From contig JAWBPV010000002.1 of assembly GCA_039000425.1 (NCBI GenBank), positions 14,303-78,302 of the forward strand: 64,000 nt of DNA. Direction: 5' to 3'. The translations under genes were made by a program, and so were the position numbers. Source of the DNA: Candidatus Aenigmatarchaeota archaeon (GTDB taxonomy: Archaea; Aenigmatarchaeota; Aenigmatarchaeia; CG10238-14; SCSR01). This document shows, piece by piece, positions 1,539-34,733 of the stretch. Under the pieces are notes generated by a model. It was not told where the DNA came from, did not search any database, and saw nothing but the letters and a program-made list of their open reading frames with translations. The stretch's first letter is position 1, and every line of letters starts with the position of its first letter.

Positions 1539-2126
1539 TTATAATCTAAAATTTTTCTTAAACTTTTTCAATAAAATTTTATAATTCTTTTCCAGCCATA
1601 ATGCTAACGGGCAAGGAGAACTCTCAAGCGAACATATTTTTTCATGCAAATACTGACACCGTTGAGACTCAAATTTTTTATGAATAAACCACCGCGTTAA
1701 CAAATCCAAATCTTCTTTACTGATACTAGAATCAACAGTAAAATCACCATCAAGAAAACGAAATGAATTGTGAGTTATTCGATAATATGCAAAATAAACA
1801 CCATTCTTATACCAGTATACACTAATAACAAAACTTAGCTTATTATCAACAAGGTTCTTTAACTCATTATAAATATCTTCATGTGCTTTTCTAAAAGACT
1901 CATTGAGAAATAATCGTTTATTCCTTTCAGAAGAAATCATTCCCATATCATTAAAAAATGTAATTCGTTTCGTATCATATATAATCATAAAAGGATATTT
2001 TATCCGGCAAGCTGCATCAATTCGAGCAGATAAACCTTTCAATTCATAAAATAATCCAAAATAATTGGATGCGCTCTTGGGCACTCTTTGTACAACCATT
2101 TTATATCCTCTTTTTGAACTTATCAA
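1539..2126 (-). CDS. Cys-rich paralog family member 1 (unknown function)
   Basis: 195 aa. Shares the ISVYWYKNG...LDLLTRWFIHKKF...C-x-C-x-CPLALWLEKN...LLKKF blocks with the next two ORFs. Confidence 0.6.
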   Translation of the reverse strand: MISSKRGYKMVVQRVPKSASNYFGLFYELKGLSARIDAACRIKYPFMIIYDTKRITFFNDMGMISSERNKRLFLNESFRKAHEDIYNELKNLVDNKLSFVISVYWYKNGVYFAYYRITHNSFRFLDGDFTVDSSISKEDLDLLTRWFIHKKFESQRCQYLHEKICSLESSPCPLALWLEKNYKILLKKFKKNFRL

Positions 2127-2634
2127 ATGTAAATTTTTTCAAATCCTTCAACAAAATTTCACGATTCTTCTTCAACCATAGCATTAACGGGCAAGGATAA
2201 TTACCAATTGAACGAGAACATCTTCCCTTGCGCAGACAACTGCACCGTTTGGACTTAAATTTTTTATAAATAAACATACGAGTCAACAAATTCAAATCTT
2301 TTCTATTAATATCAGGATAATTTCTAATAAAAGACCGCAACGACTTGGGAGCAATCTGATACCAGGCAAGAAAGGTATCATTTTTGTACCAATAAACGCT
2401 GATACTAAATTTTGGCTCCCTATTAATAAGATTTTTCAATTCATTACAAGTTTTTTTGGTTAAATTCTTATTTATTTCCGTAAAACCATTGAAATTAAAA
2501 AATATATGTTCACGCCTTCTGTATCGATAAATTTCTTTATCCTTAAAATGCGAAATTTGCCTCATATAACGCACAATTTCGCCAAAAGGCTGCGTTATCC
2601 AACAGCACGCATCAATATTCGGGATGTAATTCAT
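2101..2634 (-). CDS. Cys-rich paralog family member 2
   Basis: 177 aa. ISVYWYKND...LNLLTRMFIYKKFKSKRCSCLRKGRCSRSIGNYPCPLMLWLKKN. Overlaps member 1 by 26 nt. Confidence 0.6.
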   Translation of the reverse strand: MNYIPNIDACCWITQPFGEIVRYMRQISHFKDKEIYRYRRREHIFFNFNGFTEINKNLTKKTCNELKNLINREPKFSISVYWYKNDTFLAWYQIAPKSLRSFIRNYPDINRKDLNLLTRMFIYKKFKSKRCSCLRKGRCSRSIGNYPCPLMLWLKKNREILLKDLKKFTFDKFKKRI

Positions 2635-2692
2635 TTAATTCACAAAATAATTCAAAACAATTAATCATTTTTTGTGATATCCTTTCCGCCAT

Positions 2693-3274
2693 TTAAACCT
2701 CCTTTAGCTCTTTATTAAATCTCTTCATTAAAAAGCGTTCATTTTTTTCTAACCATTCCTTCAAAGTACAATCATGCACTAAAGAATACACACATTTACC
2801 ATCTTTTGTAATGCAACGCAATTTTTTTGATCTAAATTTCTTGGCAATATATATACGACTCAAAATGTTCAAATCCTTAAAATCACCTTCTTCAAACTTA
2901 ATCAATTGGCAGCGATCGGGGGACACAAAAAAGTAAGCTATCGTGCCCGATTCATTCCACCATCGGACATTAATATTAAATCTGGGTTTATCTCTAATTA
3001 AACTTCTCAATTCTTTACATGTAGTTTCAGAAAGCTTCCGCTTACCATCGGCAAGATATTTATTCAAATCTATAAATATTGACCGACTTCTATAGCGCTC
3101 ATTACATACACCACAATGAACAATTGGAATCCGCTTAAATCGAAAATACCCATACGGATTTTTCCAAATCCAACATTGCGCTTCAATTTCCATATCAAGA
3201 TTCTTCAATGTATAATACATAATTGCGCAATTAAGAATCTTTTCAAACTCCTCATCTTTCATGCTCTCCTCCAA
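2693..3274 (-). CDS. Cys-rich paralog family member 3
   Basis: 193 aa. NVRWWNESG...LNILSRIYIAKKFRSKKLRCITKDGKCVYSLVHDCTLKEWLEKN, plus an HCGVCNERY motif. Confidence 0.6.
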   Translation of the reverse strand: MEESMKDEEFEKILNCAIMYYTLKNLDMEIEAQCWIWKNPYGYFRFKRIPIVHCGVCNERYRSRSIFIDLNKYLADGKRKLSETTCKELRSLIRDKPRFNINVRWWNESGTIAYFFVSPDRCQLIKFEEGDFKDLNILSRIYIAKKFRSKKLRCITKDGKCVYSLVHDCTLKEWLEKNERFLMKRFNKELKEV

Positions 3275-3975: not shown

Positions 3976-4004
3976 CTCCTTTTTCTTTCTTATAACCTAA
4001 AAGC
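3976..4004 (-). promoter_or_regulatory. conserved early promoter/RBS module (instance 1)
   Basis: The minus strand reads TTTAGGTTATAAGAAAGAAAAAGGAGGTG. The same module recurs at six or more other minus-strand gene starts. Confidence 0.5.
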
Positions 4005-4033: not shown

Positions 4034-4876
4034 TTAGAGTTTCAACAGATCTGCAATATTCGCAAAAGGTGCATCCGGCACTTTTATTGCTTGCAAAATT
4101 CCAGCTTTTTCAATACGCACAATCAAAGAAACATTACGTGGCGCATCAAAGAAAGTATAACCTGTTGCATCAGTTACATAAACTTTCTTACGACTAACTC
4201 CAAGCTTATCCCCAACACGCTTTGGCACATCATAACCCACTTCAACTTCCACGCCAGATGCTGGCTCCAAATTCAAATCAACAGCAAAAACATGAATCCG
4301 ACACAATTCAGGATCGGGCGATGGAGTATAAACAATCGGCCCTCCGATAATCTCAATGCTTGTATCATCTTGAACTAAAAGAAATGTCGAATCAAATTTA
4401 TATCCAGCGCGATATGCATTAATCACGTAAGAGCCTCCGCTGAGATATACAATTGCCTTTCCATTTCCATTAGTAAGCGTCTTAAGTATGGGAGTGCTAT
4501 CACTGATTATTGACAACATAACATCTGGAATTATCTGATTATCGGTGGTTTTAGCACTAATTTCAACACGGAATATACCAAATCTATCAGATATTGCGGC
4601 ATAGTTCTTAACAAAAATATGCTCAAGCAAAGGCTCAAAGCCAACACTGGTATATTTAATCAAATAATCTCCTTCAATATCAAAAACAGAAGAATCAAAC
4701 CTTCGGTAATAAACGCCTGGGAGAAAAGAGCTTTCAGTTAAACTAAAAGGACCAAGCTCGGTATCGTCGGGCTTTTTGATAAAACATTCAACCAAAGCAC
4801 CTGAAACACGATTTCCTGCCTCATCAACAAGTTCAACTAACGCTAAAACCTGTTCTCCTAAATTATAACGAATCAT
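4034..4876 (-). CDS. beta-sandwich protein with two CarboxypepD_reg-like domains
   Basis: 280 aa. Two segments resemble carboxypeptidase-regulatory (Ig-like) domains (…NGNGKAIVYLSGGSYVINAYRAGYKF…). Stop/start overlaps the 871-aa gene. Confidence 0.5.
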   Translation of the reverse strand: MIRYNLGEQVLALVELVDEAGNRVSGALVECFIKKPDDTELGPFSLTESSFLPGVYYRRFDSSVFDIEGDYLIKYTSVGFEPLLEHIFVKNYAAISDRFGIFRVEISAKTTDNQIIPDVMLSIISDSTPILKTLTNGNGKAIVYLSGGSYVINAYRAGYKFDSTFLLVQDDTSIEIIGGPIVYTPSPDPELCRIHVFAVDLNLEPASGVEVEVGYDVPKRVGDKLGVSRKKVYVTDATGYTFFDAPRNVSLIVRIEKAGILQAIKVPDAPFANIADLLKL

Positions 4877-7488
4877 GGTTTCTTTATCCGTCTCTTTCCA
4901 ACAAGCATACTGGGACTATAATAAATCTTCGAATTCGCCGCTGGTGGTGCCTCAAAGATAAATTGCATTTTATTTCTATCAAATTTGACTTCGTCGGGTA
5001 TACTCCCAGGTGGTGATGAGATTTCTGGAGTGTATTTGTAACCAAAAAACCCGTTGCTTTGGTTTAAAAACACATAACCATTATCATTGCCAATTATATA
5101 TAAACCGATTTCACTGCTAGGTAATTGCTGCAAATCCCAAAACGGTGACCACGTATGTCCATCTTTTGATCGACGAATCATTAACGACATTGTTGCCACA
5201 TTAATTCCGCATGCTAAATACAAATCTTTAACTTTAGTAATAAAATAAACACCATTTAGTTGCGGTTCAAATTCTGTTGTTGATAAATTCAATCGGCCGA
5301 ATACCGCAGTCGACATGTCATTCATACTTGTCAATCTTATACACCACAAAGAGTCGGCGTTGATCATCACGGGAATCCAGTAGTAGTTACCCGATGGTAC
5401 AATCAAAGGTCCAAATGTAGGTTCGTTTGATGATATATCATATGAAAATGGAAGTATTGCATTTGACGCCAATACAGGTGCAAAACCCGAAATAACTGTG
5501 CCATTCGCCTTTATGGGGCAGCCAATTATAAAGTTTCCACCGCCTGGAACATTTGGGACAATAATATCATCGACAGTGTCGATTGTTTGATTCATTAAAT
5601 CGATTTTGACAAAAGACAATCCAATTGAAACTCCGTCATCACGCATTATACAATAGTAAAACGCATCATTGATTTTAACTGTATTTCCGCCAATGAATCG
5701 CAAAGAAGTTGAGTAATTTATTGGCAAAAAAGTAGCATTTTTAAGTTCTTCAAGTGTTGTTCCCGAACGCATATATGCTCGCTCTTCGAGTCGGATTTCA
5801 TAAATCAAATTATTATCATAAATAAAGAGTTCTCCCTGAAACCCCATCGGAGTAAATTCAACGGGTTCGCTTAACGATTCTGGTATTGGTGGTATATATG
5901 GAGTTTTCCAGTCTTCAGAAACGTCTATAACCGATATTTTACGTAGTACGCCATCTCCAACTAAATCCGCCCAAACATCGATTGCTTCGTTTGGAATAGA
6001 CAGTAATTGTGGCACATCAACATTAAATGTCGTTGTAACTCCATCACCTTCCAAAACACCCGCAGGTTTAATATTTGCAATAATTTTTTCTTCTGTTTTC
6101 TCAATTCTCTCATAAAAATAAGGTTGTAAAATTTCCATTGCGTAATTTAACGGTACAGAGTCTTTACAATAGCTCGGGATATCCCCGATCGGATTTTTAT
6201 TTGGTGAAGTATCATATACTATCTCTTCCTCCGAGCCAAAGAAAAACCCTTTTGCATAGTTAAAAATGTATCCATTTTCTCTGAACACACCACGAAACAT
6301 ATCAGGTCCGTCGGCAATAATAATTTTTCTCGGGTCAACTCCGAAACTACGTAACCATTCTTCATTTCTCAAAAAAGACTGATAATAAAGAAATGCAAAA
6401 AGCGATTTAGAAATTGAACTGAATTTCGTGTATACACCCGAACCAATATTTTTTGTTCTTATCAAACATGAGAATGGATAAAACATTGCACAACAATTTA
6501 AAAAAGATATTGAAGATGACATTTGTGAGAAATCATAGAGTACAAATGGAATTGAAGCAGGTGAAAGCCAAATGTAACATCTATCAAAAACAATTGACGG
6601 AAATCCAACCGAAAAAAATCCCTCCGTTAGATCTAAAAATGCCATCGCATTTATAAAACAAGATTTAAACACTAAAGTTGGCAGCATCGCCGACATTGTA
6701 TGAACTGTAAATTGAGGTTCTCCATTGCTTCGTACCTCAAAAACAGGTTCGCCTGCTTTATGTCGTTGGGTTATTTGTGAAGTATCTATTCTAAGACAAT
6801 TTAAATAAATTCTGTCGTTCGTATGCGCATCAAAATCAAGCGCTGGTGAAATGTGAACTTCGGTTCGATCGTTTGCGGGATCGTAATTCATTGAAACGAT
6901 ATCAAAAATATTAAAAATGGGGAAAAATATGGTTTTGAATGCAAATTTTCTTATTGTGTTCCATGGCGGAACATCGATATTTCCTGCAACATAAATTACA
7001 TTACTTCCAAATGGTGCGTCGGCGACGAGATATGTATTGTAATTTTGGGCATTCATTTGTTCAATGTTGGGATAGATTCCTACGTACCCGCCACTCCAGT
7101 CTATCGCACCCCATACCGGTACGTCTCTAATACCCGTATTTGGTTCAATATCTTCAAGAATTACACCTACATTATCAACATTTGCAACATGGCCTATTTC
7201 AAGTCCTTCGAAAAATGCTTTCGCATCATTGACAATTGAAACTTTGCCAAAGATATGACCATTATAACCAACAAAATGAACAGCTTTGTTATTTAACAAT
7301 ATATCTCCGAATGTATTTCCTATTACAACGACAGTGTCGCCGCTTTCAAGAATAGAATCAACACCTTGCCATGTTTGTTTCGCGGTTTGCCGAGTTAGTC
7401 CATCGTTATCATCATTGCCATTCATTTCATCCCAATAAATCCGTTTTCCCGCTTTAAAAAGACTTTCCATGAACTCGCTTAAAATCAT
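4873..7488 (-). CDS. large right-handed parallel beta-helix (pectate-lyase fold) protein, paralog A; candidate tailspike/depolymerase
   Basis: 871 aa. The N-terminus KRIYWDEMNGNDDNDGLTRQTAKQTWQGVDSILESGDTVVVIGNTF matches the classic G-x-D-x-N-D-G...GDT-V/I signature of beta-helix proteins. Its C-terminus (DRNKMQFIFEAPP..KIYY) aligns with 24099..26669. Confidence 0.7.
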   Translation of the reverse strand: MILSEFMESLFKAGKRIYWDEMNGNDDNDGLTRQTAKQTWQGVDSILESGDTVVVIGNTFGDILLNNKAVHFVGYNGHIFGKVSIVNDAKAFFEGLEIGHVANVDNVGVILEDIEPNTGIRDVPVWGAIDWSGGYVGIYPNIEQMNAQNYNTYLVADAPFGSNVIYVAGNIDVPPWNTIRKFAFKTIFFPIFNIFDIVSMNYDPANDRTEVHISPALDFDAHTNDRIYLNCLRIDTSQITQRHKAGEPVFEVRSNGEPQFTVHTMSAMLPTLVFKSCFINAMAFLDLTEGFFSVGFPSIVFDRCYIWLSPASIPFVLYDFSQMSSSISFLNCCAMFYPFSCLIRTKNIGSGVYTKFSSISKSLFAFLYYQSFLRNEEWLRSFGVDPRKIIIADGPDMFRGVFRENGYIFNYAKGFFFGSEEEIVYDTSPNKNPIGDIPSYCKDSVPLNYAMEILQPYFYERIEKTEEKIIANIKPAGVLEGDGVTTTFNVDVPQLLSIPNEAIDVWADLVGDGVLRKISVIDVSEDWKTPYIPPIPESLSEPVEFTPMGFQGELFIYDNNLIYEIRLEERAYMRSGTTLEELKNATFLPINYSTSLRFIGGNTVKINDAFYYCIMRDDGVSIGLSFVKIDLMNQTIDTVDDIIVPNVPGGGNFIIGCPIKANGTVISGFAPVLASNAILPFSYDISSNEPTFGPLIVPSGNYYWIPVMINADSLWCIRLTSMNDMSTAVFGRLNLSTTEFEPQLNGVYFITKVKDLYLACGINVATMSLMIRRSKDGHTWSPFWDLQQLPSSEIGLYIIGNDNGYVFLNQSNGFFGYKYTPEISSPPGSIPDEVKFDRNKMQFIFEAPPAANSKIYYSPSMLVGKRRIKKP

Positions 7489-8048: not shown

Positions 8049-8493
8049 AAACCTCTATTTTTGCTGACTTTAAAAAGAGAACATATTTACTACTATTTGC
8101 TACCAACGCCAATTCTCTCGCTTGAACTTCATAGGAAATGTTATAATACGCCTTAAAAAATGAACAAAAACGCAATAAATTCTCAATAAATTCCAAAGCA
8201 TATTTACAATAAAATTTCAACTTTCCATCAATCCGTTGCTGGGCAATATGCACGGTTTCATGCTTGAATATCATAACAGAATGAGGATATTCCAACACTA
8301 TATACGGATCTTGTGCAATGCCCGAATATTTAAAAAACTTAAGTCCTATCCATGCAAAAATTGCACGAATTAGTCCTATTTCTTTAAACAAAGCTGAAAA
8401 AGTATCAACAAGTTTTCCATATTTATAAAGTTCACTGGCCGGATGATAAAGCCCGGGAAGACTCACATAAGAAGTAATCCTATAAACTATCAT
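8041..8493 (-). CDS. hypothetical protein with HExxH motif (possible minimal zincin)
   Basis: 150 aa. Contains ...FKHETVHIAQQ... Confidence 0.4.
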   Translation of the reverse strand: MIVYRITSYVSLPGLYHPASELYKYGKLVDTFSALFKEIGLIRAIFAWIGLKFFKYSGIAQDPYIVLEYPHSVMIFKHETVHIAQQRIDGKLKFYCKYALEFIENLLRFCSFFKAYYNISYEVQARELALVANSSKYVLFLKSAKIEVFA

Positions 8494-9017
8494 TCTCCAG
8501 AATTCCCAAAGATGTAAATGTATTTGCCATCCGCGCCCTTTTTCCAGCGTTCAAAACGATTCCCCATATCTACATGAAAAAAATTCTGTGCAGGATAGTA
8601 ACCCAATCCATTAAATCCACACTGCTCGCACAATGCCCATATGTAACGCTCTATGCCATTGGCCTGGAATTTATAAAACTCGGGCAATTTCGTCAACAAC
8701 TTCGTTCGTGCCGTCTGCGATAAAGTAAAATCAACTGCTTGTTTTTTTGTATGAAACGAATTGAATGCCCCCCCAATTGCAGCATTATGCTCGGGACATC
8801 TATATCCAGATGTAATCAAAATTGGAACGCCAAGCATTGAACGAAATCGGTCAAGAGTTAGAACTAAACTCTCATCCATGTCATAAACGGGGATATTTTT
8901 GTGAATAGAACATTTACAAGCGAACTCCTCAGGACGAAAATATTTGACCTTTGACCAATCCATGAAATTATTATAACTCAAAACGAACTCAAACAACAAC
9001 AAATGTTTGAACGCCAC
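8490..9017 (-). CDS. peptidase M15 family (D-Ala-D-Ala carboxypeptidase / endolysin-like) protein
   Basis: LITSGYRCPEHNAAIGGAFNSFHTKKQAVDF matches the M15 zinc-binding signature. The true start may be the internal Met (MDWSKVKY) at 8963. Confidence 0.75.
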   Translation of the reverse strand: MAFKHLLLFEFVLSYNNFMDWSKVKYFRPEEFACKCSIHKNIPVYDMDESLVLTLDRFRSMLGVPILITSGYRCPEHNAAIGGAFNSFHTKKQAVDFTLSQTARTKLLTKLPEFYKFQANGIERYIWALCEQCGFNGLGYYPAQNFFHVDMGNRFERWKKGADGKYIYIFGNSGE

Positions 9018-9440: not shown

Positions 9441-9653
9441 TCACTTATTCAATAATTCTTCTATAACCGTTGTAATACATCCTCCCCACCACAATATTGA
9501 TAATACAATCGCGAAGATGGAGAAACCTTTGTTTACGGTTTTCTCCACTTCTTCTTCTTTCCAATAATATGTCATAATGCTCGCGATTAAACAATATACC
9601 ATAAATCCCTTAAATATTTCCTCCAATAACGCGAAAATTAAATTGCTAACCAT
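9441..9653 (-). CDS. small two-TM membrane protein
   Basis: 70 aa. Preceded by the conserved promoter/RBS module at 9659-9688. Confidence 0.5.
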   Translation of the reverse strand: MVSNLIFALLEEIFKGFMVYCLIASIMTYYWKEEEVEKTVNKGFSIFAIVLSILWWGGCITTVIEELLNK

Positions 9654-9658
9654 TTTTC

Positions 9659-9688
9659 ACCTCCTTTTTCTTTCCTTATAACTAAAAA
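9659..9688 (-). promoter_or_regulatory. conserved early promoter/RBS module (instance 2)
   Basis: The minus strand reads CGTTTTTAGTTATAAGGAAAGAAAAAGGAGGTG, then 6 nt, then ATG. Confidence 0.5.
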
Positions 9689-9741
9689 CGCTATGTTAAA
9701 ATTTGATGGCAAAAGCTAAAAAAAAAGAAGCTGCTCCTCCC

Positions 9742-9959
9742 TTAGAGCAGCTTCCACATTTCCCAAATGACTGGTAACCATAAAGGCACGACCAGCCACC
9801 CGGCAAGGCTTCCTCCAAACAACACCAAATCTGGCACCAATACCAGCATAGTTGCGAAGAACATCAATACGAACACTCCTACAAGTTCATTCGGCGGATT
9901 TATGAAAATAAAAACAACCAAGATAATCAATCCAATTAACAAATTGACTAAACAAGGCA
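9742..9959 (-). CDS. small membrane protein (start revised to the RBS-supported ATG)
   Basis: The track ORF starts at 10008, but the promoter/RBS module (9966-9998) lies inside that extension. ATG 9959 (MPCLVNLLIGL...) follows GGAGGTG with a 6-nt spacer. Confidence 0.5.
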
Positions 9960-9965
9960 TTTTTT

Positions 9966-9998
9966 CACCTCCTTTCTTTTTTTCCTTATAACTAAAAT
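9966..9998 (-). promoter_or_regulatory. conserved early promoter/RBS module (instance 3)
   Basis: The minus strand reads TTTAGTTATAAGGAAAAAAAGAAAGGAGGTG. Confidence 0.5.
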
Positions 9999-10010
9999 GC
10001 CCCTTCATTT

Positions 10011-10143
10011 TTAGTCTGACTTGTCAATCATTTTATTCAAAAATTTCTTGACATAATCAAATAATTCGTCCAATTTATGAACATATTTAGGATCCTTAAT
10101 GCACGCTTTTATGAAATCGTTGTCACACTCTAAAGTAAAATAT
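10011..10143 (-). pseudogene. 5'-truncated remnant of a seventh member of the 11414-14612 paralog family
   Basis: The minus-strand frame gives YFTLECDNDFIKACIKDPKYVHKLDELFDYVKKFLNKMIDKSD*. This matches the conserved ECDDEFV.KCIE..KYVHKLDELF.YVEKFL core of the family. An in-frame stop follows Y at the 10143 end of the fragment and there is no start codon. It abuts the upstream end of the tnpB element. Confidence 0.55.
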
Positions 10144-11413
10144 CAGAAACTAATCACTAAATATATAGAAATCTATTGATATTGATAGAATTTTATTGTG
10201 CAACTTTAATATGAAAAATCAGCTATGATATTTGGATTGATTTTTAATGTTTTTCATGATAAATTATGACTATGATTCGGTCAGCGAAATATACATTGAA
10301 ATTCGCTACAAATAAAAAGAAAAATTATCTTAATCAATTGTTTGACATTTATGTTAAATATCTACAAAAAACAATTGATTTAATGTGGAACAAACAGATT
10401 CCAATCAAGAAGAAGTTATCATCAAAGAAGATAACATGGATGGACGATTTAGGCGGTCAATATAAAAATTTGATATATCAACATGCGTCTCGGATTGTAA
10501 GATCGTGTCGGTTTAAAAAGGGAAAAAAACCGGTGATAAAAAATCCGACTATAACTTTTGATGCGAGAATGGTGAACATTGAAAAATCTCATAACACGTT
10601 TGATAAATGGATCAGACTGAAACTACCATTTATCAAAGATGGATATAAAAATCGTCGGATTGAAATTTTAATCCCGTTAAAGGAGCATCGGCATAGTCTA
10701 AAGTTTAAAGATTGGGAATTAGTTAAATCAGTTCGAATCAACAGGGATTTTGTCACTTTGATATTTAAAAAAGAAACTCCGAAGCCGAAGGAGAACGGCA
10801 AAATAATCGGAATTGATATTGGCTACAAATATTTGATTGCGACTTCGGAAGGCGAACTAATCGGGTCTGAGATGGAACGAATCTATGAAAAGATAGCAAG
10901 GAAAAGACAAGGTTCGAAAGCATTTAAACGAGCATTGATCGAGCGTGATAATAAGATAAATGAAATCATTAACAAAAATCTTGATTTAAGCAATGTAAAG
11001 ATTTTGAAAGTTGAGGACTTGAAAAATGTGAAAAAGAACAGTCATGGTCGGATTAGAAGAAAATTTAATAATAAACTACAAAGGTGGTCATACCCGAAAG
11101 TTATAGATAAGCTGAAACGTGCATGTGAGGAAGAAGCCGTGCAATTCCTCCGTGTGCGTCCAGCTTATAGTTCAATTACATGCCCGAGGTGTCAATTCCG
11201 ACATAAAAGTAACCGTATTGGTGAAAAATTCAAGTGTCGGAATTGTGGCTACGTTAATCATGCCGACATCGTCGGTGCGATAAATGTAGCCAATTGGGAG
11301 CCTATAGTCCCCAATGCACCAAAAACCTCAGTTCAGGAACAAATTTCTATAAACTGAGGAACTATGACCTCAATGATTCTAATGTTTCAATAGTTATTAT
11401 TCGTTCCATAGCT
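10144..11413 (+). mobile_element. IS200/IS605-family insertion (tnpB-only); ends approximate
   Basis: The only long plus-strand gene in a minus-strand block, with no tnpA. A truncated host-family gene lies on its left flank. Boundaries are inferred from the flanking CDS ends, not from identified LE/RE hairpins. Confidence 0.45.
10266..11357 (+). CDS. tnpB: TnpB / IS605 OrfB-type RuvC-like nuclease
   Basis: 363 aa. RuvC-I IGIDIGYKYL, RuvC-II KVEDLKNV, and a C-terminal Zn finger plus RuvC-III (CPRCQF...CRNCGYVNHADIVGAINVA). Confidence 0.85.
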   Translation: MTMIRSAKYTLKFATNKKKNYLNQLFDIYVKYLQKTIDLMWNKQIPIKKKLSSKKITWMDDLGGQYKNLIYQHASRIVRSCRFKKGKKPVIKNPTITFDARMVNIEKSHNTFDKWIRLKLPFIKDGYKNRRIEILIPLKEHRHSLKFKDWELVKSVRINRDFVTLIFKKETPKPKENGKIIGIDIGYKYLIATSEGELIGSEMERIYEKIARKRQGSKAFKRALIERDNKINEIINKNLDLSNVKILKVEDLKNVKKNSHGRIRRKFNNKLQRWSYPKVIDKLKRACEEEAVQFLRVRPAYSSITCPRCQFRHKSNRIGEKFKCRNCGYVNHADIVGAINVANWEPIVPNAPKTSVQEQISIN

Positions 11414-11962
11414 TCAACCAGCTTCTTTGTTTAATTTGTCAATCATTCTCTTTGATGCAACAACCTTGAATATTCTCGTATTTTTTAATTCCTGCATTAT
11501 TTCATCTTTAATTTGATTTGACCTCTTAATCATTTCACTTAGAAATTTTTCAATATACTCAAACAATTCATCTAACTTATGAACATACTTAGCATCTTCA
11601 ATACACTTCTTCACAAATTCATTATCAAAATTTAAAGGTCTAAAAGATTCACTTTCAAGACTTGATTTAGAGATTTGAATATATAATTCGCCATTTTGGA
11701 AAAAAAAGCCAAAATCAGTATATTTATTTAATATGCGATCTATTTTGTCGGCTTTACATCCCAACCTCTTCAATCCTTGCAAAAATGCAATAGCTGCTTC
11801 GTCTTCTCCAGAAATATTTCCAAACTGATTCTTCAGTATTTTAAGGCGATCCGCAATTAGCTCATTAATTTCCTCGCGTAAATCTCTTAAAGTAGAATTA
11901 TCAACAAATCTTTCCCTAAAAATTTCTTGAATTAACTTTTCGACTGAAGAACTAGACCTCAT
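11414..11962 (-). CDS. tandem paralog family P1 (unknown function)
   Basis: 182 aa. Shared blocks: FGNISG..AIAFLQGLK..., DEFVKKCIEDAKYVHKLDELFEYIEKFL, ...QIKDEIMQELKNTRIFKVVAS. Own promoter/RBS module at 11972-11993. Confidence 0.65.
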   Translation of the reverse strand: MRSSSSVEKLIQEIFRERFVDNSTLRDLREEINELIADRLKILKNQFGNISGEDEAAIAFLQGLKRLGCKADKIDRILNKYTDFGFFFQNGELYIQISKSSLESESFRPLNFDNEFVKKCIEDAKYVHKLDELFEYIEKFLSEMIKRSNQIKDEIMQELKNTRIFKVVASKRMIDKLNKEAG

Positions 11963-11971
11963 ACTGCTTAT

Positions 11972-11993
11972 CCCTCCTTTTTTATAACTAAAT
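11972..11993 (-). promoter_or_regulatory. conserved early promoter/RBS module (instance 4, short variant)
   Basis: The minus strand reads TTTAGTTATAAAAAAGGAGGG, then 9 nt, then ATG 11962. Confidence 0.45.
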
Positions 11994-12045
11994 TTACCGA
12001 TTAACTTCAGCTACATCTAAAATTTATTCTTTTGAATTAATTTTC

Positions 12046-12579
12046 TCATTCAATTTGTCCAACCATTCTTTGCAATGCAACAATTTTAAACGTCTGTGTT
12101 TTTTCCAACTCCTGCTCTATCTCATTCTTAATTTGATTTGCTCTGCTAATGAGTTTATCCAAAAATTTTTCAACATACTCGAACAATTCATCCAACTTGT
12201 GAATATATTCAATGTCTTCAATACATTTCTTTACAAATTCATCATCAAGTTCAAAAGGCTCAAAAGTCAAATACTCCTCAAACTTATTAGACCCATCAAT
12301 ATATAATATGCCATTCCCTAATGAAAATCTGAAATCAGTATATTTGTACAGCATATGATCTATTTCTTCAGTTTTATGTCCCAATGCTTTCAACCCTCGC
12401 AAAAACGCAATTGACATTTCCGTTCCTCCAGAAATATCACCAAAATGCTTATACAATGCCTCAAGCCTGTTAACAATTAATTCATTAATTTCTTTGCATA
12501 AATTTTCTAAAATAGAATTATCAATAAAATTCTCTTCACGAATTTCTGCCAACTTTTTAACCAGGTTACTAGATTCCAC
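12046..12579 (-). CDS. tandem paralog family P2 (GTG start)
   Basis: 177 aa. Carries the ...DDEFVKKCIEDIEYIHKLDELFEYVEKFL... block. Upstream is CAATAAGAGGAGGTGAGAC-GTG, a compressed variant of the module. Confidence 0.65.
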   Translation of the reverse strand: MESSNLVKKLAEIREENFIDNSILENLCKEINELIVNRLEALYKHFGDISGGTEMSIAFLRGLKALGHKTEEIDHMLYKYTDFRFSLGNGILYIDGSNKFEEYLTFEPFELDDEFVKKCIEDIEYIHKLDELFEYVEKFLDKLISRANQIKNEIEQELEKTQTFKIVALQRMVGQIE

Positions 12580-12630
12580 GTCTCACCTCCTCTTATTGAT
12601 TAATTACTCGTTTTAAACTGTTTTTCATTT

Positions 12631-13104
12631 TCAACGTCTGCGTTTTCTTTCCAGTTCTCGTCTCAACTTGTCAACCACCCCATTTAGAAATTCTTCAACG
12701 AAATCAAACACCTTATCCAATTTATGAACATACTTTGGATTCTCAACACATTTTTCCACAAATCCATTATAACAACCCAAAAGCTCGAACGCGTCCCATC
12801 TATCACTATTACTCTCATAGGTAGTTGCTCTAACAAATAATCCAAATTTACTCAAATGGAATCTGAAAATATCATACCGATTTAGTATTTCATCAATCAT
12901 TTCAATTTTATATTTTAATGCCTTTAACCCTTCCAAAAGTGAAGTAGTTGCATCTGATTTTCCAGAAATACCACCGAAACGATCATATAACATTTCAACT
13001 CTGCCCTCAATTAACTTATCAATCTCTCTGCGTAACCTTTCAAGAGTCTGATCATCAATGAATCTTTTTTCTTCTATCAACTTTTTAACTAGATCAGATT
13101 CCAT
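12631..13104 (-). CDS. tandem paralog family P3
   Basis: 157 aa. Divergent middle but retains ...KCVENPKYVHKLDKVFDFVEEFL. Upstream GTTATGAAGGGAGG resembles the module. Confidence 0.6.
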   Translation of the reverse strand: MESDLVKKLIEEKRFIDDQTLERLRREIDKLIEGRVEMLYDRFGGISGKSDATTSLLEGLKALKYKIEMIDEILNRYDIFRFHLSKFGLFVRATTYESNSDRWDAFELLGCYNGFVEKCVENPKYVHKLDKVFDFVEEFLNGVVDKLRRELERKRRR

Positions 13105-13163
13105 ATGTACCTCCCTTCATAACGTTGCTTTAGTAAAATTAAAAATAAAATCAATAGGGAACA

Positions 13164-13694
13164 TTATTTGCTTTCGTCACTTTTAGCCAATCTGTCAAGC
13201 AATTTCTTCGATGCAACAATTCTAAATGTCTGAGTCTTTTTCAGCTCATCCATTATTTCATTTCTAATTTGCTCCGATTTATTAATCGTCTCCTTCAGAA
13301 ATTTTTCAATATAATCAAACACTTCATCCAATTTGTGAACGTATTTAGGATTCTCAATACATTTTCTTACAAACTCATCATTACAACGCAAATCAAATCT
13401 AATACCAGATGTATGAGGCGTATATGAGTACCAAACATACAAATCGGCATCTGTAAAGCCAAAGCGAAAATATTTATGATTAGTCAATATATCATCTATT
13501 TCACCAACTTTATATTCTAAAGTCTTCAATCCTTGCAAAAATGCAACGGCCATACCTGCCTCTCCAGAAATATTACCAAAATGCGAATACAATACCTTAA
13601 GTCTCTCAAAAATCACACGATTAATTTCTTCCTTCAAACTTGCAAAAGTGAGATTGTCAACAAACTTTTCTTCACGCGAGGTTAACTCTCCCAT
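13164..13694 (-). CDS. tandem paralog family P4
   Basis: 176 aa. FGNISGEAGMAVAFLQGLK...CNDEFVRKCIENPKYVHKLDEVFDYIEKFL...QIRNEIMDELKKTQTFRIVAS. Confidence 0.65.
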   Translation of the reverse strand: MGELTSREEKFVDNLTFASLKEEINRVIFERLKVLYSHFGNISGEAGMAVAFLQGLKTLEYKVGEIDDILTNHKYFRFGFTDADLYVWYSYTPHTSGIRFDLRCNDEFVRKCIENPKYVHKLDEVFDYIEKFLKETINKSEQIRNEIMDELKKTQTFRIVASKKLLDRLAKSDESK

Positions 13695-14104
13695 TTGTCT
13701 CCTCCGATGAAATCTCCTTTGATTCTGCTCAGAAAATTCTCAACAAAGGCAAATATCTCATCAATTTTATACACATATTTAGGGTCCTCAATACATTTTC
13801 TTATAAATTCATCATCTGCACCAAATTCAAACGTCTTTTCTTCATCACCATAATGAAACAAAACTTGAAGTCCAAAATGGTCAAGCCAAAGTTCACAATA
13901 ATCATACTCGCTAAATAGAAGCGAATCTATTTCTTTAGTACTATAATCATAAGATTTCAATTTTTCCAAGAATTCAATTGCAATCTCCATTTCGCCAGTA
14001 ATAGTGCCAAAACGTTTATGCAACATATTAATCTTTTTCGAAATAAGATCATCAATTGTCTTTCTCAATTCTACAAGCACATTATTATCAAGGTATTTAT
14101 TCAT
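13682..14104 (-). CDS. tandem paralog family P5 (C-terminally shorter)
   Basis: 140 aa. ...ADDEFIRKCIEDPKYVYKIDEIFAFVENFL. Overlaps P4 and P6 by a few nt, so translationally coupled. Confidence 0.6.
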   Translation of the reverse strand: MNKYLDNNVLVELRKTIDDLISKKINMLHKRFGTITGEMEIAIEFLEKLKSYDYSTKEIDSLLFSEYDYCELWLDHFGLQVLFHYGDEEKTFEFGADDEFIRKCIEDPKYVYKIDEIFAFVENFLSRIKGDFIGGDKWES

Positions 14105-14612
14105 TTTCTCCCTCCGCCAATTTATCTAACAATCTCTGCGAAGCAACCTCTCTAAATACCCGCGTCTTCTTTAATTCATTCATAATCTCGTCTTTAATCC
14201 TCTTTGACGAATTCCTCACTTGAATCAAGAAATTTTCAACAAAATCAAATAGCTCATCCAATTTCCAAACATATTCTGAATTATTGATACATCTTCTTAC
14301 AAATTCATCATCACATTCCAATCGAAATTCTCGCTTGTAATCATTACCATCAATCGCTTGGACAACAAGAGCTCTATCATTCAATTTAAAATCAATCGGT
14401 CTATAGCTCAAAAATAGTTTTGCCGAATCCGTGCGAAATCCTGATAGACTCAATCCTTGCAAAAATGCAATGGCCATATCAGAATCTCCACGAATTAGAC
14501 CAAATCTTTTGTAAAGTAATTCAATCTTCTTTCTAATCAAACTATTCAATTCTTCTTTCAATTCTTCAAATGTTCTACAATCAATTAATTTTGATTTTTG
14601 TTCATTACTCAT
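14097..14612 (-). CDS. tandem paralog family P6 (start revised)
   Basis: The track ORF begins at 14699, but the promoter/RBS module (14617-14641) lies inside that extension. ATG 14612 (MSNEQKSKLIDC...) follows GGGAGC with a 6-nt spacer, giving 171 aa. ...ECDDEFVRRCINNSEYVWKLDELFDFVENFL. Confidence 0.65.
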   Translation of the reverse strand: MSNEQKSKLIDCRTFEELKEELNSLIRKKIELLYKRFGLIRGDSDMAIAFLQGLSLSGFRTDSAKLFLSYRPIDFKLNDRALVVQAIDGNDYKREFRLECDDEFVRRCINNSEYVWKLDELFDFVENFLIQVRNSSKRIKDEIMNELKKTRVFREVASQRLLDKLAEGENE

Positions 14613-14616
14613 GTTA

Positions 14617-14641
14617 GCTCCCTTTTTTTTTCTTATAACAA
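14617..14641 (-). promoter_or_regulatory. conserved early promoter/RBS module (instance 5)
   Basis: The minus strand reads TGTTATAAGAAAAAAAAAGGGAGC. Heads the P6-P5-P4 coupled unit. Confidence 0.45.
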
Positions 14642-14757
14642 GTTTTAATCCGCAAAATAAATTTAGGTAATAATTATTTAAAAACCATGAATTAATCACA
14701 AAAAAACGCTACAAAGCTAAAATAAAGGAAGAGTGAGGCCACTCTCCCTTTTTATTA

Positions 14758-16131
14758 CTAATCCAGATAGATAGTCCAACCGTAAGGCGCAGGCGTCGCC
14801 TTACGATCGGTGCAAATCCACAACACAGGAAATTTAACTTTTTCAATTGGCGGAAACTGATCAATTGCCAAATCAGTAAAGTAGATCAGTGGTCTCAATC
14901 TTGTTGAATTTATATAATCAAATACTTCATTGTAATCAGTCCCTCCTCTTCCATGAATTTTAATTTTTTCACCTTCCAATTTATCTGGGTACTCAATTTT
15001 CGTAATTTTCGCAATTTTTGCATCAGCCTCAATAAGCTCGATAGAATAATCACTAAAGTACTTCAATATGCCATTAATTTCGCTAAATACTTTAACCAAT
15101 TCATCCCGGCTCATTGAACCGGACGTATCTACCGCAATTACAATATCTAACTTTTTATTTCTCAATGTCGGAATGTAAACACCTTCCAACAGCAATTTCT
15201 TATTCGGAAATAACCAATTTATTCTACGTCTCGCAATCTTAGTCAAAAAGTCTCCTAATATTTGTCTCCAATTCAATTTTGGATGCAGAATGTTCTCAAT
15301 TATCTCAACTAATCCTGCGGGAATTTTCCCGCATAACTTCGAATAGGCGAATGCTTCAGCAATCTGCTTTTTCAATTCCTCTTCCAACTTAGCCTTCTCT
15401 CCTTCACTCAATTGCTCCGAGGAATTATGAACATCGGGGTTTTTCCCCGATAAATCGTCTTTTTCAATCTCATATCCTTCAGGAATTCCTTTAATTTTAA
15501 CTTTTCCAATTGTTCCTTCGAAATTTTCCTTTTTAATCGCACCTTCTGAATTTCCCGAAGAAGAATCTGCAGAACTATCCGAAGTTTTCTTAGAATTAGA
15601 AGAATTAGAAAACGAAATTGATTTTTCCAACAACTTATAATATTCCTCCCAGCTCAATCCTTCTGGGAAGCCAAACATAGCTGGTTCAATCCACGAAATC
15701 CCTGGAATGTCTGGAGATTTAAATCCAATACTTTTCAACAAAGAGTTTACTGCTAAATCTTGCGCGATATTCGTCAACGGTGGCTTCGAATAAGCCGCCG
15801 GAATGCGAAAATGCATCAATATCAAATGCAAAATCTCATGCATAATCACATTCATTAAATCTCTTTTGCTTCTCATCAATGAAACAAATATTGGATTTAA
15901 TCTTATAGTTAATGGTTTGAAATCAATTCTCGCTGTTGGAATATCATAATCAAATACTTGAGGAATTGACAATACAAATGACGAAAAGAACGGATAACTT
16001 AATATGATTTCAATCTTAGCCTTTTCCAATCGGTCAATAATTTCAGGCTTAATTCCTTCAATCCTTTCTTTTATTTTCTTCTCAATTTCTTTAAGATCCA
16101 CCTTCATTTTAGTCCCCCATAAATGGATCAT
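14758..16131 (-). CDS. VWA-domain protein with N-terminal HExxH metallopeptidase-like domain (MoxR partner), copy 1
   Basis: 457 aa. HEILHLILMH zinc motif in the N-terminal half. MIDAS motif DIVIAVDTSGSMS in the C-terminal half. Overlaps the start of the downstream AAA+ gene. Confidence 0.75.
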   Translation of the reverse strand: MIHLWGTKMKVDLKEIEKKIKERIEGIKPEIIDRLEKAKIEIILSYPFFSSFVLSIPQVFDYDIPTARIDFKPLTIRLNPIFVSLMRSKRDLMNVIMHEILHLILMHFRIPAAYSKPPLTNIAQDLAVNSLLKSIGFKSPDIPGISWIEPAMFGFPEGLSWEEYYKLLEKSISFSNSSNSKKTSDSSADSSSGNSEGAIKKENFEGTIGKVKIKGIPEGYEIEKDDLSGKNPDVHNSSEQLSEGEKAKLEEELKKQIAEAFAYSKLCGKIPAGLVEIIENILHPKLNWRQILGDFLTKIARRRINWLFPNKKLLLEGVYIPTLRNKKLDIVIAVDTSGSMSRDELVKVFSEINGILKYFSDYSIELIEADAKIAKITKIEYPDKLEGEKIKIHGRGGTDYNEVFDYINSTRLRPLIYFTDLAIDQFPPIEKVKFPVLWICTDRKATPAPYGWTIYLD

Positions 16132-17143
16132 AATAAACTTCTACAATTTTCTCCCAATTCGGAAGTGTTGCAATTTGTTCCTTTATTTTTGCAAAAAGCA
16201 TCCGAATCAAAAACGCGCCGAATTCCTTTTTAGATTCTTTCGCCAAAAATAGAGCATAATCCAGAATTGCCTTATAATGCGCGGGTTTCTCGGCGCGAAT
16301 TACAATAGTAGTGCAAACAGCTGACAATACATCCAATTTATCAATCTCAGGAAATTCTTTTCCATCCAAAATCTTCTCAATATTAGGCAATTCATTGTAA
16401 ACCTTCAAAAATCCTTCAAATTCTGCTGCCGTCGCCGGGCCTACAGAAATCGCCGCGGCTTCATAAGGTGCAATCCCCGCTTTCAACAATTTAGAGCAAA
16501 ATTCCCATGTTCTAGGACATGGGAAGTTAATTGTATTTCGATTTGGAATACTTGTAAATGATGGTTTAAATTTATTGAATGCAAGAATTCTTGGATCAAA
16601 CCCTTTCTCAATTGCGTATTCAACAAATTCATCAAATGAAAATTGTATCTCAAAATGGTTAAATCTGCTGATAATGGCTTCACTCAATTCGGCAACATAC
16701 GGGACATCCTCCCGCCTGTTGCCGGCGGCAAATATATACCAATTATCTCCTAATTTGTGTTCTCCAATTACTCTATCTAACACCAATTGTTGCGATGCTT
16801 TCAATACTTCCTCATTTGCTAAATTAAATTCGTCTAAGAACAAAATACCCTTTCCTGAATCAGGCAAATTGTTGGGCCGATACCATCCGGCCTTTTCTCC
16901 TTTAACGAGAAAAGGTCCTCTCAAATCAATAATGTCGCAACTCGCCAATCTCAAATCAATCCAACTAATTCCCAATTCTTCAGCCAATTGCCTTACGGCC
17001 GAGGTCTTCCCAATCCCCACTGGTCCCCAGAGAAAAATCGCATTTGCCTCTGGGGCCGAAAATGTTTTTAAATAATTCTTCGCAATACTTTTAAATTTCT
17101 TAATTGAACATCGCAATCCGTAAATCCGTTCCGTGACCTTCAC
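16109..17143 (-). CDS. MoxR-like AAA+ ATPase (AAA_5/CbbQ-NorQ type), copy 1 (GTG start)
   Basis: Walker A LWGPVGIGKTS and Walker B ILFLDEFNLANEEVL. The track start 17191 lies upstream of the promoter/RBS module (17156-17180). An in-frame GTG at 17143 follows GGAGG. Confidence 0.8.
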   Translation of the reverse strand: MKVTERIYGLRCSIKKFKSIAKNYLKTFSAPEANAIFLWGPVGIGKTSAVRQLAEELGISWIDLRLASCDIIDLRGPFLVKGEKAGWYRPNNLPDSGKGILFLDEFNLANEEVLKASQQLVLDRVIGEHKLGDNWYIFAAGNRREDVPYVAELSEAIISRFNHFEIQFSFDEFVEYAIEKGFDPRILAFNKFKPSFTSIPNRNTINFPCPRTWEFCSKLLKAGIAPYEAAAISVGPATAAEFEGFLKVYNELPNIEKILDGKEFPEIDKLDVLSAVCTTIVIRAEKPAHYKAILDYALFLAKESKKEFGAFLIRMLFAKIKEQIATLPNWEKIVEVYYDPFMGD

Positions 17144-17155
17144 TATAGTTTTAAC

Positions 17156-17180
17156 CTCCTTTTCTTTTCTTATAACTTTT
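17156..17180 (-). promoter_or_regulatory. conserved early promoter/RBS module (instance 6)
   Basis: The minus strand reads AAAAGTTATAAGAAAAGAAAAGGAGG. Confidence 0.45.
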
Positions 17181-17235
17181 CTAACGCACATTTTTTTGTC
17201 ACGGAAAAACGGCTAGCTAAAAATTAATTAATTTA

Positions 17236-23850: not shown

Positions 23851-24102
23851 TTGATTTTTTGCGAAAGGTTTTTTATAATAAGGAACATGAATGATTTAAT
23901 TTCTTTATTGAAAACATCATATTTGCATGCTGACATTTCCACTTTGCCCGATACCGAGCTTCAGAGCTTGTATTCCAAACTTGTCAAGGCGTCTCAGCTT
24001 ACTCCCAATAATGTCTTAGTTTCAAAGATGCTTGATAAAGTAAATATGGAAATTGCAAAAAGGGTGCCTCAAGATAATTCTTCTGAAGGAGGAGTACTTT
24101 GA
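23851..24102 (+). CDS. small helical protein preceding beta-helix paralog B
   Basis: 83 aa. Overlaps the start of the 856-aa gene. Pattern similar to 7485..7673. Confidence 0.5.
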   Translation: MIFCERFFIIRNMNDLISLLKTSYLHADISTLPDTELQSLYSKLVKASQLTPNNVLVSKMLDKVNMEIAKRVPQDNSSEGGVL

Positions 24103-30948: not shown

Positions 30949-31303
30949 TGTTTTTTAGTTTGTCTGAAATTACTTTTAAATTGTCTTTAACTACTGTTTC
31001 TTCAACCAGTTTTGCGCCTTTTTTCCCAATCCAAATTAAAACTGGAGCCATTTCCAGCTCCGGAGACGCTCTTGAGCAAAAGACTATAGCTAATTTATTC
31101 TCGCCTGGAATAGACGTAATCCATGCTATATCGGAATAGTTTAAATCTTTTAAAAGAAAATCAATAAGATACAATTTGACACGATATACGCTTTCTGAGC
31201 CATCAAAAGATTTGCAAATAACCGTTCCTTCTGGATTTTCATTTGAATTATACAGTTGAATTGTTGTTTCGATAATATTTCTTATTTCAGTTTCCGTCCA
31301 CAT
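30932..31303 (-). CDS. hypothetical protein
   Basis: 123-aa ORF. Confidence 0.45.
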   Translation of the reverse strand: MWTETEIRNIIETTIQLYNSNENPEGTVICKSFDGSESVYRVKLYLIDFLLKDLNYSDIAWITSIPGENKLAIVFCSRASPELEMAPVLIWIGKKGAKLVEETVVKDNLKVISDKLKNNDSWH

Positions 31304-32573: not shown

Positions 32574-33694
32574 GTTTTTATGTCTAACAGTTCAAGCACA
32601 TCTTTCAACTTTTTATTATCAATTATATGCCAGAACTTTTCCATGGGCAGCTTTCTGTAAACGAGAATACTCAGTCCGAACACCATCAGTTCTTTTGGTG
32701 GGATTGTGGTTTTTTCATCCCATTTCGTCCATGCTATTTTATGCATTACATCTACTGCGTTTTTTAAGGCTTTAATGTCATTCAGAGGGGCATTCTGAGC
32801 AATTGCAGATACAGCGATGACTGCTTGTCTGGAATTGGCTATATTTGGCACAATTCCCTTTGTATAAACTGCATTCAAATCCAGCATCATCTTTAGAGCA
32901 TCATTCTGTATGAAAGCTTCAAATTGTGTGCCTGCACTGATCCCCACAGTAGAAGAAAATACGGCAAGACGTACTTCGGGATTTAGTTTCATTGCATGCC
33001 CAAGATCTCTGCTAAGCATTTCCCAAGCACGTGGACATGGAAAAGGCATTTCTGGATTTAATTTTGCATAGTCATAATTTGCAAAGTAAGAAGGATAGAG
33101 CTTCAGGAAGCTGATAATTTCCGATGCTATATTATTTGGAACAGCAAAGTTCTTTACCCAAGTATCGAAATCGGGATGAACATGGATAATTCTGAATCTG
33201 CTTCTCAAAGGTTCGGACAGCTGATGAACAAATGCGAAAGTCTTTTTGGAATTGCCTGCGGCAACAATCATATAGTTTTCGCCTAACTTATGCGGTCCAA
33301 TTGTTCTTGTGTAAACTAGCTGTAATGCTGCATTCAGAACTTCTTTAGTTGCACAATTCAGCTCATCCAGAAAAAGAATGCCTCTTTCAACATTGTTGGT
33401 TGGAAACAAATCTTCGGACGGTTTAAACCATTCAACCTGTTTTTTCTCAAAAATAGGAACTGCAAAACCTCTTAAATCGGAAGGATCTATTATCAAATGG
33501 AGAGGCGCTATTACCAATTTTGCATTAAATTCGTCGGCAAGTTGCTGAACAATTGCAGTTTTACCAACGCCTGGAGGACCATAAATGAAGCAAGCAGCTT
33601 TGCTAATTCCTTTCCAGAAATTAACCATATTGAATCTTAACCATTCCTTTGCTATCGCTATATTTACGCTATATTCCTGGGCTGTTTCAGTCAT
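32570..33694 (-). CDS. MoxR-like AAA+ ATPase, copy 2
   Basis: Walker A IYGPPGVGKTA and Walker B ILFLDELNCATKEVL. Overlaps the VWA gene (ATGA). Confidence 0.8.
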   Translation of the reverse strand: MTETAQEYSVNIAIAKEWLRFNMVNFWKGISKAACFIYGPPGVGKTAIVQQLADEFNAKLVIAPLHLIIDPSDLRGFAVPIFEKKQVEWFKPSEDLFPTNNVERGILFLDELNCATKEVLNAALQLVYTRTIGPHKLGENYMIVAAGNSKKTFAFVHQLSEPLRSRFRIIHVHPDFDTWVKNFAVPNNIASEIISFLKLYPSYFANYDYAKLNPEMPFPCPRAWEMLSRDLGHAMKLNPEVRLAVFSSTVGISAGTQFEAFIQNDALKMMLDLNAVYTKGIVPNIANSRQAVIAVSAIAQNAPLNDIKALKNAVDVMHKIAWTKWDEKTTIPPKELMVFGLSILVYRKLPMEKFWHIIDNKKLKDVLELLDIKT

Positions 33695-34708: not shown

Positions 34709-34733
34709 ACCTCCTTTTTTCTCTTATAACTAA
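34709..34733 (-). promoter_or_regulatory. conserved early promoter/RBS module (instance 7)
   Basis: The minus strand reads TTTAGTTATAAGAGAAAAAAGGAGG. Confidence 0.45.

Follow-up and report, generated by a model that had tools for sequence, protein, structure and literature searches.

Why would a genome carry, one after another, six versions of the same small gene? The question is raised by a stretch of 64,000 nucleotides (nt), hereafter the window, deposited under the name Candidatus Aenigmatarchaeota archaeon, in which six paralogous genes, P1 to P6, and the relic of a seventh copy lie in tandem between positions 10,011 and 14,641. Genes for peptidoglycan hydrolases and for a family A DNA polymerase (PolA) make it probable that the window is bacteriophage DNA placed in the bin of an archaeal metagenome-assembled genome (MAG); its source would be a large, highly divergent, uncultivated tailed phage with the array in its non-structural (minus-strand) arm. 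An earlier note, made from the sequence alone, had read the array as an accessory island of an early phage region that is under diversifying selection. We found instead that it is a real, expressed-looking orphan family under purifying selection, consisting of six tandem genes and one relic with a single fold, in which the β surface and the termini have diverged. An accessory role in the interaction with the host is plausible for it.

The existence of the tandem family was confirmed by the open reading frames (ORFs), by alignment and by a profile scan, which together point to six intact minus-strand genes and a truncated seventh copy. P1 to P6 are alignable over their whole length, with pairwise identities of 33-56% and 22 invariant columns. 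A profile hidden Markov model built from the six paralogs and run on every stop-to-stop segment in all six reading frames of the window retrieved exactly P1 to P6 (E 1e-57 to 1e-82) and one remnant; no further P-like gene was found in the 64 kb. Independently, a DNA repeat search returned a seven-copy family of 103 nt whose members are 71-76% identical. The start of P6 is the ATG at 14612 and not that of a longer GTG-initiated ORF, in agreement with the public gene calls (171 aa in loci L002 and L003). Three conserved blocks had been ascribed to all six proteins; blocks 1 and 2 are indeed found in 6/6, but block 3 (QIK.EI..EL.KT..F..VAS) is restricted to P1, P2, P4 and P6, and the C-terminal helix that carries it is missing from P3 and P5. 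The proteins have a grand average of hydropathy of about -0.5 and isoelectric points (pI) of 4.7-6.8, neutral to acidic, and we consider them soluble and cytoplasmic.

Searches for relatives returned almost nothing beyond the array itself. With all six paralogs as queries, Pfam, PHROGs, PADLOC and NCBIfam gave nothing below E 0.005, the best PADLOC-DB defence model reaching E 0.007 with one paralog only, which does not qualify as a match. A sequence profile search of the PDB produced no match (E at least 0.31), and the best value in BFVD was E 0.077. The P family shows no detectable similarity to those known anti-defence proteins that the PDB, BFVD, Pfam and PHROGs contain (Acr, Ocr/ArdA, Tad, Acb, Gad and others), nor does it have the four-helix core and conserved Rx4-6H motif of the HEPN domain. 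A word-indexed search of 5.8e9 proteins recovered the window's own six clusters alone, and back-translated pattern scans of IMG/VR, Joint Genome Institute (JGI) metagenomes and GTDB species genomes recovered no relative. The suspicion that the fold and family are unrecognised was thus borne out, and we classify the P family as a lineage-specific orphan.

The most exhaustive of these searches, a HMMER profile search of 1.84e9 representatives, returned the family's own clusters and only four other proteins (P0007 to P0010), all of them long and repetitive. As these are the sole non-self matches, we considered that the P domain might be a distant relative of the ~108-residue repeat of Bacteroidota-type surface or tail-fibre-like proteins, that is, a structural or adhesive module maintained as separate genes. 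The whole-protein E-values range from 1.6e-16 to 5.8e-4 with 4-10 matched stretches in each protein, and every ~108-aa repeat aligns collinearly with the P profile over ~100 residues, the two sharing the motifs LxGxYGN[VI] and [DN]xxF[VI]xx[LI]xxNxxF[VI]xKLxD. In a profile-profile comparison with hhalign, the P and repeat profiles gave a probability of 64% and a score of 33.1, above the controls with shuffled columns (11.6 ± 2.0) and shuffled blocks (13.8 ± 2.3, maximum 24.1), and an unrelated family of the same genome reached a probability of just 0.2%. However, each single repeat contributes only 9-18 bits, and from the per-domain E-values we estimate that a library as large as this would yield ~1e3 chance matches of such strength. 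What makes the E-values of the whole proteins low is the summing of near-identical weak repeats. The repeat proteins score equally well against many unrelated Pfam families, two of them reaching seemingly significant totals for DUF6843 (8e-17) and GATase_7 (4e-11) in which no single stretch passes. The pairwise P value of 6.7e-5 is uncorrected for the choice of the target as the best of 1.84e9, and the similarity is not significant once database size and repeat summing are taken into account. Moreover, in the middle third of the alignment a P segment that is confidently helical stands opposite YNGDTNKFYYLDDQGN, which looks β-rich by eye, and the shared signal is mostly an amphipathic xEF[VI]xx[LI] periodicity. 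The two systems also differ in arrangement: a single secreted protein carries the repeat 4-10 times over, whereas the P proteins are encoded by separate genes, are cytoplasmic and have extra N- and C-terminal helices. From these sequence comparisons, the four matches are probably an artefact of summed repeats, and we regard a relationship with the Bacteroidota-type repeat as quite unlikely. The case illustrates that highly repetitive proteins can give misleadingly low E-values in exhaustive profile searches.

The proteins can nevertheless be modelled with confidence. AlphaFold2 models, built with only the paralogs as alignment, reached a predicted local distance difference test score (pLDDT) of 84.8 and a predicted template modelling score (pTM) of 0.73 for the long P1, and 86.4 and 0.79 for the short P5, with all five models at 83-86; the P1 and P5 models share their topology and are mutually consistent. 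The predicted chain runs from a long helix through a short strand after the FGxIxG loop, two helices, a three-stranded β meander and a short helix to a long helix, and in P1, P2, P4 and P6 the last helix is extended by an amphipathic stretch of ~35 residues. Mean pairwise identity differs widely along this fold. It is highest in helix H5 (DEFVRKCIE, 67%), the FGxIxG loop (61%) and H6a (53%), intermediate in H3 (47%), H2 (41%) and H4 (33%), and lowest in the C-terminal extension (31%), the N-terminal helix (25%) and the β meander (21%). The proportion of non-synonymous differences (pN) follows the same division, with 0.20 in block 116-146 and 0.57 in the middle (β) segment. The earlier note was right in describing a conserved scaffold whose middle and termini are far more variable. 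Its idea of a hypervariable insert, in the sense of a loop, does not hold, because this segment is confidently modelled as the three-stranded meander, at pLDDT values from the high 80s into the 90s, hydrophobic positions kept and L93 and F107 invariant. In the models, the β meander forms a surface that varies while the fold stays fixed, and not a disordered insert. Divergence of the meander, of the N-terminus and of the C-terminal extension is close to saturation.

In our own reading of the models, the order of elements (helix, short strand, helix, helix, β hairpin and strand) resembles that of a winged helix, and P3 ends in a basic tail. The paralogs could on this basis be nucleic-acid-binding proteins or transcription regulators with differing specificities. 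The candidate recognition helix, however, is acidic and only 33% conserved, and even the least acidic of the proteins are no more than neutral; a winged-helix core is in our judgement highly improbable.

We then asked whether the variable surface is still changing. Among the paralogs, the proportion of synonymous differences (pS) averages 0.62, and the synonymous distance (dS) is above 1 and often undefined. Synonymous sites are thus saturated, which means that the duplications are ancient and that dN/dS across the copies is uninformative. Population data consist of two haplotypes only, ~1% apart and compared across P3 to P6, the second being represented by L001 (SRR21619491) and L009 (SRR27730045). 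Of the changes between them, 10 are synonymous and 11 non-synonymous, giving a pN/pS of 0.26, and the replacements are mostly conservative (V/I, I/L, R/K, D/E). Gene order and copy number are identical in all overlapping contigs, which come from six sequencing runs and two accession series, so that the copy-number variation anticipated at the locus was not seen. In the region 9900-14800 we found no near-identical pair of template and variable repeats such as a diversity-generating retroelement would have, just paralogous segments of 60-91% identity and short chance matches, and no reverse transcriptase was present among the ORFs scanned with Pfam, a scan outside which some small ORFs fell.

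Some observations do fit an arms-race cassette under ongoing diversifying selection, in which the array would be an anti-defence or toxin-immunity-like family with a hypervariable insert. In the middle segment, non-synonymous sites (pN 0.57) have diverged nearly as far as synonymous ones (pS 0.63). All 4 changes that separate the haplotypes in P6 are non-synonymous (0 synonymous), and three of them lie in the β segment, a count too small for significance. In P4, 8 of the 10 single-nucleotide polymorphisms (SNPs) lie in codons 134-158 (13222-13293, 72 nt), 7 of them within the 15 codons 144-158 (43 nt); the binomial p for this clustering is about 1e-9 as entered for at least 10 SNPs in 72 nt, the observed count being 8. 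For six of the eight variant alleles in the cluster, P1 or P2 has the identical base at the corresponding alignment position; this agreement suggests that a short tract was converted from one paralog to another. Against ongoing diversification stand the low overall pN/pS with its conservative replacements, the saturation that prevents positive selection from being read from the paralogs, and the constancy of order and copy number. The anti-defence and toxin-immunity functions also found no support, as no PADLOC model, no Pfam Imm or SUKH family and no anti-defence structure in the PDB matched. The array neighbours are a von Willebrand factor A (vWA)-metallopeptidase, a MoxR ATPase, TnpB and small membrane proteins, with no toxin gene adjacent as would be expected of an immunity-protein array. 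We consider the arms-race explanation very unlikely and read the genes as old duplicates, each maintained by purifying selection with occasional exchange, and not as an actively diversifying cassette. No ongoing diversifying selection is evidently needed for a conserved scaffold with a variable segment, since old duplicates that have sub-functionalised can show this pattern.

One further copy is destroyed in association with a TnpB element. The 43-codon remnant encodes YFTLECDNDFIKACIKDPKYVHKLDELFDYVKKFLNKMIDKSD followed by a stop codon, and the profile matches it over 10014-10142 (E 5.6e-19, profile positions 99-139), which confirms the proposal of a truncated seventh copy abutting tnpB; the remnant also belongs to the DNA repeat families D2 and D3. 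It contains no in-frame start after the TGA at 10143-10145 and lies ~120 nt from the TnpB start. The TnpB segment (~10143-11413) fills the entire gap from the remnant to the P1 stop codon, indicating that copy 7 has lost its first ~100 codons and that the spacer has disappeared as well. This segment adjoins the remnant in both haplotypes (L007, 99.6% identical), and the truncated copy stands next to TnpB wherever the junction is covered (L002, L003 and L007); at least one member of the family is thus dispensable. TnpB itself has 468 homologues, up to 65% identical and some of them named IS605 OrfB by JGI; the closest come from metagenome contigs, and GTDB genomes gave no close relative. It occurs as a single copy in the window, no ORF for TnpA (Y1 transposase) lies beside it, and no omega RNA or other Rfam match was found in 9500-15000.

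The array appears to be transcribed and translated as more than one unit. P6 and P5 overlap by 8 nt (ATGAATAA) and P5 and P4 by 13 nt, and the downstream starts of P5 and P4 are each preceded by a GGAGG-type Shine-Dalgarno sequence inside the preceding gene, which confirms the translational coupling of P6-P5-P4 that had been proposed. A strong Shine-Dalgarno sequence precedes every array gene. By inspection, we noticed a recurrent GTTATAAG module, which we defined as tttaGTTATAAg, an A/G-rich run, GGAGG, 5-9 nt and a start codon; a pattern scan of the window gave 8 matches, all on the minus strand, where 0.2 were expected. The module resembles an extended -10-type promoter fused to a ribosome-binding site (RBS), with a TATA box as the alternative. 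No conserved -35 element was found upstream of its copies, and a scan for the sigma-70 consensus was not enriched (27 sites, 21.8 expected). The claim that each of the separately started genes has its own module therefore holds in part: the module is real and heads P1 and P6, a variant of it precedes P3, and in front of P2 there is a Shine-Dalgarno sequence alone. Nor is the module specific to the array, since it occurs throughout the minus-strand arm. Outside the array it stands before the MoxR ATPase gene, before two genes for small membrane proteins that lie upstream of the M15 endolysin, and before further units, and some copies appear from the sequence to sit just past a hairpin and T-run. 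The assignment of the array to an early region with an anti-defence role is not supported. Judged from the layout of these signals, the array appears to comprise at least three units, namely the coupled P6-P5-P4, P3 (perhaps with P2) and P1. With a terminator-like hairpin in front of P6 and the separate modules, it forms its own set of transcription units that share the regulatory signal of the minus arm.

Immediately upstream of the array are two genes whose products match AAA_5 and AAA, then DUF2201_N and DUF2201, an arrangement known from jumbo phages. Pairs of MoxR and vWA proteins with an N-terminal metallopeptidase in group 2.2 jumbo phages were proposed to be virion-assembly chaperones, and a MoxR-vWA system was reported to be necessary for tail development in the Acidianus two-tailed virus (PMC7824862). 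The P proteins could accordingly be subunits, clients or adaptors of the adjacent pair, forming a hetero-oligomeric assembly of six non-redundant subunits that acts, for example, in the maturation of virions or other complexes. The position of the array directly downstream of the pair, the coupling of P6-P5-P4, the long amphipathic C-terminal helix in four of the six paralogs and the purifying selection on each copy at a stable copy number would all agree with such a role. The pair is, however, a neighbour of the P family and not that family itself, and the hairpin and a promoter module intervene between the two. A second MoxR / DUF2201_N-DUF2201 pair (31287-33694, minus strand), paralogous to the first (ATPases 37%, vWA proteins 27% identical), has no P-like gene beside it in the profile scan of the window, and only the pair at 14758-17191 adjoins the array. 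The nearest phages found, from the sibling runs SRR216194xx, share the MoxR/vWA genes at 31-45% identity, and no P family lies beside homologues of the upstream vWA gene in the viral-contig scan or in three related loci (L004 to L006). The association between MoxR-vWA and P genes is thus not conserved. In addition, the array is outside the plus-strand arm, which is assumed to be structural, and one P copy has already been lost. We see a function with the MoxR-vWA pair as a realistic possibility, although an unlikely one.

For the array as a whole we favour a different reading, to which we assign a probability of about 0.35: the P family would be a lineage-specific accessory family of sub-functionalised, non-enzymatic binding proteins that act as accessory infection factors. 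A small, soluble, cytoplasmic α/β orphan family would have expanded by ancient tandem duplication in the minus-strand arm. Its members may be non-enzymatic binding modules, each presenting a different β-sheet and terminal surface on the common scaffold to a different partner, and they might act during the infection cycle on macromolecules of the host or of competitors, outside core replication and virion functions. A bolder version, in which the undescribed fold serves as a modular binder whose six specificities neutralise different host factors or defence proteins, would make the family a new class of counter-defence or host-takeover proteins; we think this unlikely. If the paralogs are specific binders, they would offer six natural variants of one compact scaffold and a new family for phage-host interaction.

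Several points weigh against the accessory-binder reading. The array is stable and ancient and shows no copy-number variation, so that the rapid turnover that is a hallmark of arms races is absent. A stoichiometric hetero-complex would explain the coupling of P6-P5-P4 and the long amphipathic helices at the C-terminus at least as well as independent binders. Most ORFs of the window are without any family match, and the orphan status of the P family alone therefore says little.

Table 1. Coordinates of the array, its signals and its neighbours in the window.
Feature	Positions	Strand	Description
P1	11414-11962	-	182 aa, long form with C-terminal helix; own promoter/RBS module
P2	12046-12579	-	177 aa, GTG start, acidic (pI 4.8), Shine-Dalgarno GGAGGTG only
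P3	12631-13104	-	157 aa, short form, basic tail at the end (RRELERKRRR)
P4	13164-13694	-	176 aa, long form
P5	13682-14104	-	140 aa, minimal core form, acidic (pI 4.7)
P6	14097-14612	-	171 aa, long form, first gene of the array
Seventh-paralog remnant	10011-10142	-	43 codons; pseudogene fragment with block 2 and a short tail
TnpB gene (IS605 OrfB / Cas12f-like)	10266-11357	+	PF07282 (Cas12f1-like_TNB) E 3.2e-16, phrog_506 3e-26
Promoter-like/RBS module GTTATAAAAAAGGAGG	11973-11988	-	upstream of P1
Variant module GTTATGAAGGGAGG	13110-13123	-	upstream of P3
Promoter-like/RBS module GTTATAAGAAAAAAAAAGGGAG	14618-14639	-	heads P6-P5-P4
Module copies	3976-3996, 4855-4869, 9661-9682, 9969-9992, 11974-11988, 14618-14639, 17156-17176, 34711-34730	-	pattern scan of the window
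Terminator-like hairpin and T-rich tail	14724-14751	-	between the vWA gene and P6; 12-pair stem with 5 G-C pairs
DUF2201_N metallopeptidase fused to DUF2201 vWA-like protein	14758-16131	-	PF13203 5.9e-24, PF09967 1.5e-20
MoxR-like AAA+ ATPase	16109-17191	-	AAA_5 and AAA domains, phrog_1297 1.8e-69

The MoxR gene, for which L003 carries a 344-aa gene call, probably starts in truth at a GTG near 17143, and the module at 17156-17176 would then lie upstream of the start. On the other side of the array, between it and the M15 endolysin (8490-9017), two minus-strand genes encode small, hydrophobic-looking proteins of 70 aa (9441-9653) and ~72 aa (~9742-9957). Each sits behind a promoter/RBS module, and they are likely holin-like lysis genes; a longer ORF call of 88 aa among the two probably starts too early.

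The proteins of the window are identical to hypothetical proteins of the MAG Candidatus Aenigmatarchaeota archaeon GCA_038999945.1 (contig JAWBVK010000015.1), and the same sequence is also found on a 113,831-bp contig, these MAGs being labelled Candidatus Aenigmatarchaeota. They are also present in Logan assemblies of SRR21619491, SRR21619492 and SRR21619498 and of SRR27730045, which belongs to a separate accession series. By Pfam and PHROGs scans, the window encodes the family A DNA polymerase, a UDG-family protein, a methyltransferase and the two MoxR/vWA-peptidase pairs, together with an M15 peptidase and an SLT transglycosylase. The window has no match among GenBank phages in megablast and tblastn searches. 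As a practical point, the contig sits in Aenigmatarchaeota-labelled MAGs but looks like a bacteriophage.

Duplication followed by retention looks general in this phage, as further old paralog sets are present: three tandem genes at 1539-3274, a pair of 871-aa and 856-aa proteins, and a set at 35686-37437. The tandem set at 1539-3274 (minus strand) encodes Cys-rich proteins of 195, 177 and 193 aa that are 30-41% identical and have no Pfam match, and it adjoins the SLT transglycosylase gene (1051-1536). We tried this three-gene family as a distant relative of the P family and rejected it (hhalign probability 0.2%). The large orphan pair, 871 aa (4873-7488, minus strand) and 856 aa (24099-26669, plus strand), is 37% identical over its full length at a distance of ~17 kb, and neither protein has a Pfam or PHROG match. 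Elsewhere in the window, a gene at the start of the plus-strand arm (37861-39276, plus strand) is PurD-like (GARS ATP-grasp); as an auxiliary metabolic gene it would be unusual, and its product could instead be an ATP-grasp ligase with another function. A 931-aa protein (57120-59915, plus strand) may be an intein-interrupted terminase: it has an intein splicing domain (E 8e-16) and a LAGLIDADG-like segment, and it weakly matches a large-terminase PHROG.

Among known systems, a lineage-specific expansion of small proteins was reported in Bacillus phage G, which encodes a Zn-ribbon family of ~35 copies (Iyer et al. 2021, PMC7824862). In both cases, many paralogs of a small protein with no assigned role are found in one phage lineage outside the core structural genes, and the P-array genome likewise holds other old duplications. 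Unlike the phage G family, the P family has neither a Zn ribbon nor any other recognisable domain and is predicted to be compact α/β, with no PDB or BFVD neighbour; it has 6 (+1) copies that are strictly tandem, and no homologue in the other genomes searched. Clusters of many small, individually promoted and mostly unrelated genes are also present in phages as the host-takeover module of SPO1 and the early non-essential genes of T4. The array shares with these clusters small soluble proteins with a strong RBS, several promoter-like elements in a short stretch, and a place in the non-structural arm where it is at least partly dispensable. It differs from them in being one paralogous family, and in using a module that also heads the holin-like genes beside the endolysin. 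In summary, we regard the array as a new orphan example of a known phenomenon, the lineage-specific expansion of paralogs in large phages.

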